A DNA stretch of 7,907 nt from a virus (lineage: Monodnaviria > Loebvirae > Hofneiviricota > Faserviricetes > Tubulavirales). A program made the position numbers and the translations under genes. The notes under the pieces were generated by a model, which did not search any database, was not told the origin of the DNA, and worked only from the letters and a program-made list of their open reading frames with translations. Below are positions 3,108 through 3,346 of the stretch, piece after piece (within the stretch, counting starts at the first letter, position 1; every line of letters starts with the position of its first letter). The stretch lies in IMG/VR virus record IMGVR_UViG_2703718786_000001, positions 1 through 7,907 of that record, one strand, 5' to 3'.

Positions 3108-3207
3108 CAGTGCGCACAATGGCGTTATGTGTAAAAAGGCCGCTGCGGTGGAGAGTATCGCAGCGGCCTTTTCAACATAAATAACGCGTGTCACATTATG
3201 CGCACTG
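3108..3207. other. Structured element A: long imperfect hairpin with dif-like arms (candidate XerCD attP) and a GC-rich inner stem-loop
   Basis: Outer stem cagtgcgca (3108-3116) pairs with tgcgcactg (3199-3207). Inner perfect 11-bp stem aggccgctgcg/cgcagcggcct (3137-3169) is flanked by A and T runs. Plus-strand left arm AGTGCGCACAA-TGGCG-TTATGTGTAAA (3109-3135) and minus-strand right arm AGTGCGCATAA...TTATGTTGAAA both resemble E. coli dif GGTGCGCATAA-TGTATA-TTATGTTAAAT. Confidence 0.55.
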
Positions 3208-3250
3208 TTATAGCAGTTATCGATAAGACAAAAAGATGCCCCGTTAAAAG

Positions 3251-3346
3251 CAGTGCGTACAAGAGCGTTATGTGTAAATCGGGCGCGGCGATCGCCATTT
3301 TCGCCGCACCCGATTCAACATAACGGCATATACCTTATACGCACTG
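3251..3346. other. Structured element B: second copy of the dif-like forked hairpin
   Basis: Outer stem cagtgcgta (3251-3259) pairs with tacgcactg (3338-3346); the outer-stem changes relative to element A are compensatory (c to t on the left, g to a on the right). Inner 14-bp stem 3278-3291/3301-3314 has one mismatch. Minus-strand arm AGTGCGTATAA-GGTATA-tgccg-TTATGTTGAAT (plus 3313-3345) matches dif at 9/11, 5/6 and 10/11 positions, with a 5-nt insertion. Confidence 0.55.

Follow-up and report, generated by a model that had tools for sequence, protein, structure and literature searches.

A putative CTX-type attP(+) hairpin and a diverged tandem copy in an inovirus with relatives at the dif site of Escherichia coli

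The attachment site attP(+) of the Vibrio cholerae phage CTXphi (Val et al. 2005, Das et al. 2010, reviewed in PMC4246890) combines a site with a 12-bp center (attP1) and a site with a center of 5–7 bp (attP2), neither of which is usable as a duplex, and the bases adjoining its XerC arm, which must match dif, determine its specificity (PMC4246890). Inverted XerC/XerD site pairs of the CTX type are also described for YpfPhi of Yersinia pestis and CUS-1 of Escherichia coli O18:K1:H7 (PMC4266046, PMC4246890), so the mechanism is already known and has enterobacterial precedents. Here, we analyzed the 7,907 nucleotides (nt) of IMG/VR record IMGVR_UViG_2703718786_000001 (hereafter the window), a circular 7.9-kb temperate inovirus of E. 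coli whose intergenic region carries two forked single-stranded DNA (ssDNA) hairpins in tandem on the minus (viral) strand, H1 (3108–3207) and its paralog H2 (3251–3346). Judged by its fold, its conserved pairing, and the junctions of related prophages, H1 is a working CTX-type attP(+) for XerCD-dependent integration at dif. We consider it likely that H2 has diverged such that it goes unused at wild-type dif, yet is still Xer-reactive and is inherited together with H1 as a module.

The first-pass annotation of this DNA had described two elements of the same build, and both the inverted repeats and the folds bear this out. The outer inverted-repeat arms (3107–3121/3194–3208 in H1 and 3250–3263/3334–3347 in H2) are 93% complementary, and within them lie GC-rich inner stems at 3134–3147/3159–3172 in H1 (100% complementary) and 3277–3291/3301–3315 in H2. 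Each hairpin was folded against 200 shuffles, giving z scores of −9.7 to −10.2. H1 folded at −38.7 kcal/mol (z −10.2) compared to about −15 kcal/mol for its shuffles, of which none (0 of 200) did as well, and H2 folded at −38.0 kcal/mol on the viral strand versus −33.4 kcal/mol on the complement (4.6 kcal/mol more stable), its shuffles again reaching about −15 kcal/mol and none of 200 equaling it. The minus strand of the entire stretch 3100–3350, which the earlier annotation had singled out for folding, gave z −12. In the predicted folds, the XerC and XerD arms are double stranded and the center is bulged. Evidence beyond the fold for H2 comes from relatives, in which it stands intact beside a regenerated dif.

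E. coli dif reads GGTGCGCATAA-TGTATA-TTATGTTAAAT (as found in the retrieved loci L001 and L007). Four matches to the XerC-arm motif RGTGCGYAYAA are present in the window (0.03 expected), one at each hairpin arm and none elsewhere. The viral-strand sequence of H1 is C-AGTGCGCATAA-TGTGACACGCGTTAT-TTATGTTGAAA-(stem-loop)-TTTACACATAA-CGCCA-TTGTGCGCACT-G, and that of H2 is C-AGTGCGTATAA-GGTATATGCCG-TTATGTTGAAT-(stem-loop)-ATTTACACATAA-CGCTC-TTGTACGCACT-G. The a-arm of H1 (minus strand) consists of a XerC-type half-site, AGTGCGCATAA (3196–3206; 10/11 to dif GGTGCGCATAA), which stays with the left end of the phage after integration, a 15-nt central region, TGTGACACGCGTTAT (3181–3195), and a XerD-type half-site, TTATGTTGAAA (3170–3180; 9/11 to dif TTATGTTAAAT). 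The initial TGT of this center equals the first three bases of dif TGTATA, and the remainder is bulged or pairs GCG with the b-arm. That b-arm, AGTGCGCACAA-TGGCG-TTATGTGTAAA (3109–3135, plus strand), is an attP2-like partner site with a 5-nt center. Between the arms, a stem-loop at 3134–3172 (14-bp perfect stem, 11-nt loop) keeps the two dif-like arms in register in the predicted fold, in place of the connector of about 90 nt in CTXphi attP. A spacer of 43 nt (3208–3250; the 'M' remnant) leads to H2, whose a-arm (minus strand) has a XerC-type half-site, AGTGCGTATAA (3335–3345; 9/11 to dif), an 11-nt center, GGTATATGCCG (3324–3334), and a XerD-type half-site, TTATGTTGAAT (3313–3323; 10/11), and whose b-arm, AGTGCGTACAA-GAGCG-TTATGTGTAAA (3252–3278, plus strand), again has a 5-nt center. 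The first six bases of the H2 center are GGTATA in the window and GATATA or GACATA in relatives; their initial two bases differ from the TG of dif. Thus, the dif-like arms quoted in the earlier annotation are correct, and the irregular centers that it noted resolve into a bulge on one arm (15 versus 5 nt in H1, 11 versus 5 nt in H2), from which layout it follows that each hairpin pairs a long-center site with a 5-nt-center site. No duplex site with a 6–8-bp center is present in the window: the four half-site pairs have centers of 5, 11, or 15 nt.

To examine conservation of the fold, we gathered 19 different hairpins from related loci, of which we aligned the 12 non-junction copies (seven H1-type, five H2-type). 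Across these copies, 98.9% of the cells of a 39-pair structure are standard pairs, a value that falls to 27–54% when the 3′ partner is slid by one to three columns. Eight of the 39 pairs changed on both sides, four of them in the inner stem, where H1 and H2 are unrelated in sequence and pairing is nonetheless kept (pairs 38-84, 39-83, 42-80, and 46-76); as most of them distinguish H1 from H2, these double-sided changes reflect a small number of independent events. The compensatory changes previously noted in the outer stem are also real, with C-G replaced by T-A at pair 8-105. Bases 1 and 2 of the central region are paired and show covariation, being T-A/G-C in H1 (TG, as in dif) and G-C/A-T or G·T in H2 (GA/GG). 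T·G wobbles are invariant at columns 10-103 and 35-87, where the complement would have A·C mismatches. Since these wobbles form on the minus strand only, they support the minus strand as the packaged strand, which would then be the coding strand as in Ff and CTXphi.

Evidence on the function of H1 comes from prophage junctions, which we surveyed in complete E. coli genomes (n = 5426) plus L017, an IMG/VR record of an isolate genome. All arrays that we opened sit between the ydeQRST/fimA fimbrial cluster and hipBA and are bounded by dif half-sites; dif of E. coli K-12 lies in this interval. L017 holds the closest relative of the window (97.4% identity over 3193–7880 and 96% over 1–702), with an identical 43-nt spacer and an intact H2, and its end reads chromosome…ATTTAACATAA-TATACA/TTATGCGCACTG-TTATAGCAG…, that is, the dif XerD arm, TATACA, and the window from 3196 onward. 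The crossover therefore maps to 3193–3196, the border between the XerC arm and the center of H1, as predicted by XerC cleavage of the H1 a-arm. Relatives with H1 only (L001, L007, L011, and L020) have textbook junctions at both ends. In L007 (O166:H15 strain JNE070796), the left end is the phage AGTGCGCATAA followed by TGTATA and TTATGTTAAAT, the junction between copies is a complete H1, and the right end is the remainder of H1 followed by GGTGCGCATAA and the chromosome; similar junctions are present in strains S21EC, 504211, and Z1323CEC0015. In all, we found the H1 junction geometry at dif in L017, L001, L007, L009–L012, L014, L015, L020, L021, and L023. The proposal of the first-pass annotation that host XerCD integrates this phage at dif, and that prophages should be found beside dif, thus holds for H1, with a 97%-identical prophage and many relatives located there and flanked by dif half-sites; its extension to H2 as an equivalent site does not hold.

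H1 agrees with CTX-type attP(+) in every sequence-level respect that we considered (fold, arms, duplex centers that are unusable, TG match, junctions, and lack of an integrase). By analogy with CTXphi, H1 on the viral strand would fold such that the outer stem presents the XerC half-site and the middle stem the XerD half-site, with the center bulged; host XerC would exchange one strand between H1 and chromosomal dif, and replication would complete the reaction. The left end of the prophage would then be the phage XerC arm with the center and XerD arm of dif, a working dif open to further phages, and the right end would be the remainder of the hairpin with the dif XerC arm. This geometry of left and right junctions is seen directly in the relatives. 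Several features are shared with CTXphi: base pairing between a pair of inverted dif-like sites on the packaged strand yields a forked hairpin, one center is long (12 bp in CTXphi, 11–15 nt here) and the other short (5–7 and 5), dif is matched only by the bases adjoining the XerC arm (in H1 of the window), no integrase is encoded, dif is regenerated on one side of the prophage, tandem arrays form, and rstR-like repressor and pII-type Rep genes adjoin the attachment region. The differences are that the connector is a perfect stem-loop of 39–45 nt rather than about 90 nt, that the host is E. coli and there is no toxin cargo, and that two hairpins (up to three in relatives) stand in tandem with differing XerC-proximal bases.

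Two observations concern individual arrays. In strain EC12 (L012 28300–28312), the chromosomal XerC arm at the right junction is GATGCGCATAA instead of GGTGCGCATAA. Strain JNE112863 (L008–L010, record 1576 kb–1640 kb) has about 11 elements over about 64 kb at one dif locus: one full phage, five satellites, three further full phages, and two phages of another type.

H2 is present in 18 of the 5426 genomes, always on the chromosome. The earlier annotation was right that tandem copies are unusual, although not as a one-off: H2 belongs to a recurrent, inherited module. In seven arrays (L009, L012, L014, L015, L017, L021, and L023), the H1 XerC arm, TGTATA, and the dif XerD arm precede the spacer, an intact H2, and the body of the phage, so a regenerated dif stands beside an untouched H2. 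All right ends that we examined consist of the remainder of H1 and the dif XerC arm. A synthetic query combining the remainder of H2, the dif XerC arm, and the chromosomal flank found no H2-type right junction in the 5426 genomes; its best matches (85.5% identity) were all H1 junctions or native dif. Because H2 stays intact and the right ends are all of the H1 type, H1 is the hairpin that integrates these phages. The bases adjacent to the XerC arm are in keeping with this division, as TGT of H1 matches TGTATA of the target, whereas GGT of H2 (GAT or GAC in relatives) does not, and GG or GA in place of TG should block XerC exchange with wild-type dif. We also considered that H2 might be an attP for the native dif of another host. 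This is unlikely, as a dif-like site with the center G[AG][CT]ATA occurs in only two of 100,044 species representatives, neither of them enterobacterial (chromosome 1 of Thaumasiovibrio occultus and a metagenome-assembled genome of Aquisalimonas; L024 and L025).

H2 has nevertheless left junctions of its own. In three arrays (L002, L006, and L013), we found junctions, termed dif*, that join the H2 XerC arm and its own six central bases to the dif XerD arm. The left end reads CATTGC-AGTGCGTATAA-GATATA-TTATGTTAAAT in strains 700481 and cM8a and AGTGCGCATAA-GACATA-TTATGTTAAAT in strain 16F5M1D1, which has a single prophage; the events in 700481 and cM8a are probably independent because their spacers differ. 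On the right side, all three arrays have ordinary H1-type junctions: in cM8a and 16F5M1D1 the chromosomal end carries the XerC arm of dif itself, and in 700481 there is an H1-type junction with a neighboring phage (the chromosomal right end lies outside the retrieved sequence). The segment comprising the H1 XerC arm, the spacer, and most of H2 is therefore missing at the dif-proximal end only. Exchange by XerC alone does not account for these joints, as it predicts TGTATA, whereas they read GATATA or GACATA; nor does homologous recombination or slippage, as the 6-nt center is kept, exactly TGCCG is lost, and only 3–4 nt are shared. The joint coincides with the XerD bottom-strand cut position of dif, which on the phage side lies 6 nt from the XerC arm, and the H2 a-arm read as duplex is a XerC arm, 6 nt, and a degenerate XerD arm, TGCCGTTATGT (6/11). 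We infer from these positions that dif* arose by XerD-side exchange between the regenerated dif and duplex H2. Activation by FtsK is possible because the sites sit at dif, and replication would fix the exchanged strand at dif* because the XerC-side bases are mismatched. No Xer activation factor (XafT, DUF3653) was detected in the open reading frames (ORFs) of the window or the small ORFs of its relatives.

The module of H1, spacer, and H2 occurs in at least four backbones: the window phage, the phage of strain EC12 (L012), which carries a 2-kb 'replication endonuclease', the JNE112863 type (L008), and 3.6-kb satellites (L002 and L006) that encode only Rep, SSB, and two small proteins. In the satellites (L002 9286–15404, L006 17347–30901), which form arrays of two to five copies at dif beside full phages, the small proteins are of 87 aa and 201 aa, the latter with a double helix-turn-helix (HTH_38/HTH_7/HTH_23); its gene adjoins the attachment region, as xafT does in TLCphi, and it has no DUF3653 match. 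Some phages have three hairpins (L015 11255–11960 and L023 11332–11943), the third with a degenerate 5′ XerC arm that is fused to part of the conserved region found at window ~3560–3575. The spacer is 43 nt in the window and 95 nt in EC12 and 700481, and differs in sequence in cM8a and JNE112863. That of JNE112863 (L008) corresponds to ~38 nt at the start of the flank that H1-only elements carry at their left end, with which the cM8a spacer is also homologous, and the stretch between H2 and H3 of the triple-hairpin phage is a 370-nt truncated left end of another element. In an 'M-less' hybrid (L020), H1 is joined directly to the H2-type flank, and in the window the flank after H2 is homologous to the flank after H1 in H1-only phages with shared structural genes. 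The window is itself a mosaic, with a replication module 96% identical to phages in strains 504211 and JNE112863, a structural module 97–98.6% identical to L016/L017, and an H2 region 99.3% identical to strain EC12. The module probably arose in mixed prophage arrays. Phage genomes would have been rolled out origin-to-origin across arrays with truncated neighbors, as described for CTXphi/RS1 hybrids; the replication module and H1 would derive from one parent and H2 and the structural module from another, with H1, spacer, and H2 inherited as a module since.

How, then, should H2 be understood? Were H1 and H2 redundant CTX-type attP sites, either of which integrates at wild-type dif, as the first-pass annotation held, their common architecture, equal 11/5-nt spacing, and equally stable folds would be expected, and the XerD arm of H2 is even nearer to dif (10/11) than that of H1; the survey, however, yielded nothing above 85.5% identity to an H2-type right junction, the seven multi-hairpin arrays are joined in H1 with H2 untouched, and H2 differs from dif at the very position that decides compatibility in CTXphi (PMC4246890), so this equivalence is largely refuted and we regard it as very unlikely. 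A passenger role, with H2 as the surviving end of a truncated neighbor that has no present function, is possible, though we lean against it. Its rarity (18 of 5426 genomes), spacers that vary in length and sequence by lineage, one of them a fragment of the left flank of another element, the repetition of the pattern with a 370-nt remnant in the triple-hairpin phage, and the existence of the hybrid L020 all fit a passenger, but the stems of H2 variants stay paired through double-sided changes, and three independent, precise dif × H2 joints (two with GATATA and different spacers, one with GACATA) retain the 6-nt center and lose exactly the 5-nt TGCCG, unlike products of homologous recombination. 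At the other extreme, H1 and H2 might act as two keys: H1, with its XerC-proximal TG, would open wild-type dif, and duplex H2 would then recombine with the regenerated dif on the XerD side, deleting the spacer segment and rewriting the center of host dif from TGTATA to H2's G(A/G)(T/C)ATA. Such a dif should refuse H1-type phages and accept only H2-type hairpins, and if this were true the phage family would re-key the attachment site of its host, with integration-level exclusion or kin preference as the outcome. The proposal draws on three junctions, and we view it as speculative and rather improbable; it has a counterpart, similar though not equal, in the 'dif correction' debated for TLCphi of V. 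cholerae. For the '(S+M)' units of L002 and L006, entry through H1 followed by trimming and entry through H2 into an already rewritten dif lead to an identical final structure.

We therefore favor H1 as the working attP(+), with H2 diverged and Xer-reactive, and several points weigh against this view. XerC/XerD binding, use of ssDNA, and single-strand exchange are carried over from CTXphi, and the same junctions would be expected if a duplex a-arm site were the substrate. The bulge of H1 is 15 nt in the window versus 11 nt elsewhere, owing to a unique 4-nt duplication (TTAT TTAT, 3178–3185) that is absent from 11 of 11 other aligned H1 copies, and a circular assembly is compatible with a free phage and a tandem prophage alike. 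The three dif* junctions show that H2 reacts, and compensatory changes preserve its pairing among variants, contrary to expectation for a dead relic; 'relic' may therefore undersell H2. A different reading, that the hairpins are replication, packaging, or termination signals whose resemblance to dif is incidental, has in its favor that Ff-type phages keep such hairpins in the intergenic region, that the H1 inner stem is GC-rich with T runs flanking it on both strands, and that one weak promoter-like match (9/12) overlaps H1. Against it, the prophage joints fall exactly at the XerC-arm border, a promoter and terminator scan found nothing above chance relative to shuffles, and better origin candidates lie outside the hairpins (2930–3080 and 3400–3617). 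As the sole explanation this reading is refuted by the junctions, and we give it hardly any weight; a secondary role could exist.

The block at 2930–3080 is GC-rich, with CGTCGTC-type repeats and a hairpin at 2934–2983. It is conserved in relatives and is 86–96% identical to 2–3-kb plasmids of E. coli and E. albertii and to some 100-kb plasmids, and it may be a shared replication element. The block at 3400–3617, between H2 and the secretin gene, folds unremarkably (z −1.75) and matches more than 5000 plasmids, mostly conjugative enterobacterial ones, at 80–90% identity; the matching stretch of the IncFII plasmid p105 is located ~780 nt downstream of repA. In R1/R100, this position downstream of repA is that of a primase-dependent single-strand initiation site, and 3400–3617 may be a primase-dependent initiation (G-site-like) signal, hence the complementary-strand origin of the phage. 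We considered the hairpins as ssDNA promoters or single-strand initiation signals of plasmids and rejected this, since a split query placed most plasmid matches at 3350–3620, outside the hairpins. Where plasmids match the hairpins themselves, the matches represent remnants or the ends of integrated inoviruses. We found H1-like hairpins on 454 plasmids, most of them conjugative (e.g., L003 NZ_CP078136.1, L004 OV141394.1, and L005 NZ_CP026403.1). They either terminate an inovirus integrated into a Citrobacter IncHI1B/IncFIB plasmid or stand as isolated remnants, which suggests that H1-type phages may also insert at plasmid Xer sites.

The window is a circle of ~7.9 kb, because positions 1–16 are repeated at 7892–7907 (sequence comparison), and inovirus functions account for all of its large ORFs. 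On the minus strand, these are a small coat-like ORF (274–585), an ssDNA-binding protein (932–1303), a pII-type replication protein (1316–2551; Pfam G2P_X_C, 1e-19), the secretin (3615–4874), Zot/pI (4871–5929), DUF2523/pVI (5941–6228), and a pIII-like protein of 543 aa with a Gly-Thr repeat (6246–7877); a small Cro/CI-type HTH protein is encoded on the plus strand (2582–2857). The Gly-Thr run is coded by a long near-perfect 6-nt repeat at 6600–6780 (GGTACC/GGCACC TGTTCC type), whose length varies among relatives (multiple offset BLAST matches). In agreement with the earlier annotation, a domain search found no recombinase domain in any ORF of the window, and thus no phage-encoded integrase. 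No near-identical match to the window in its entirety was present among deposited phage genomes, and a distant search with the intergenic region gave three trivial matches only. The Zot protein is at most 40% identical to that of any deposited phage, with gut inoviruses as the best matches.

Other inoviruses and elements at dif share some of these features. YpfPhi and CUS-1, which we compare here by published description alone, are likewise inoviruses of enterobacteria that integrate in tandem at dif; the literature that we searched mentions no second tandem hairpin for them. UPphi of Enterobacterales (PMC7307601) are also E. coli inoviruses in tandem at dif with heterogeneous copies within arrays, but they are described as related to IKe/I2-2, whereas Zot of the window has no IKe/I2-2-like match among phage records; PMC7307601 makes no mention of hairpins or attP. 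VGJphi resembles the window phage in XerC-dependent dif integration by an inovirus and differs in using a single 29-bp duplex site with a center of normal length and reversible excision, a kind of duplex site that the window lacks. According to Hassan et al. 2010, as cited in PMC3442271 and PMC4246890, TLCphi alters dif. H2 read as duplex, with its XerC arm, 6 nt, and degenerate XerD arm, is reminiscent of TLCphi/GGI, as are dif* joints at the XerD-side border and a resident dif of altered sequence. The differences are that the window and its relatives show no DUF3653 activation factor, and that dif* is a deletion beside dif, not an integration, for which XerD catalysis is suggested by the position of the joint only.

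In the literature searched, a tandem second hairpin of shifted specificity appears to be undescribed, as do the recurrence of H2 across backbones, including satellites, and dif junctions that carry phage central bases. XerCD-hijacking phages and satellites at dif shape the evolution of pathogens, cholera toxin being the classic case, and mechanistic work on them has been done almost entirely in Vibrio. The dif site of E. coli is home to diverse, actively rearranging CTX-type elements, which form arrays of as many as a dozen units, 3.6-kb satellites among them. These provide a natural experiment, in which two hairpins of the same build that differ in the specificity-setting bases have distinct recombination outcomes in genomes. 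Provided that the XerD-side joints are genuine products of Xer recombination, the center of host dif can be altered by a phage, which would bear directly on the currently debated question of whether elements already at dif prepare it for those that arrive later.

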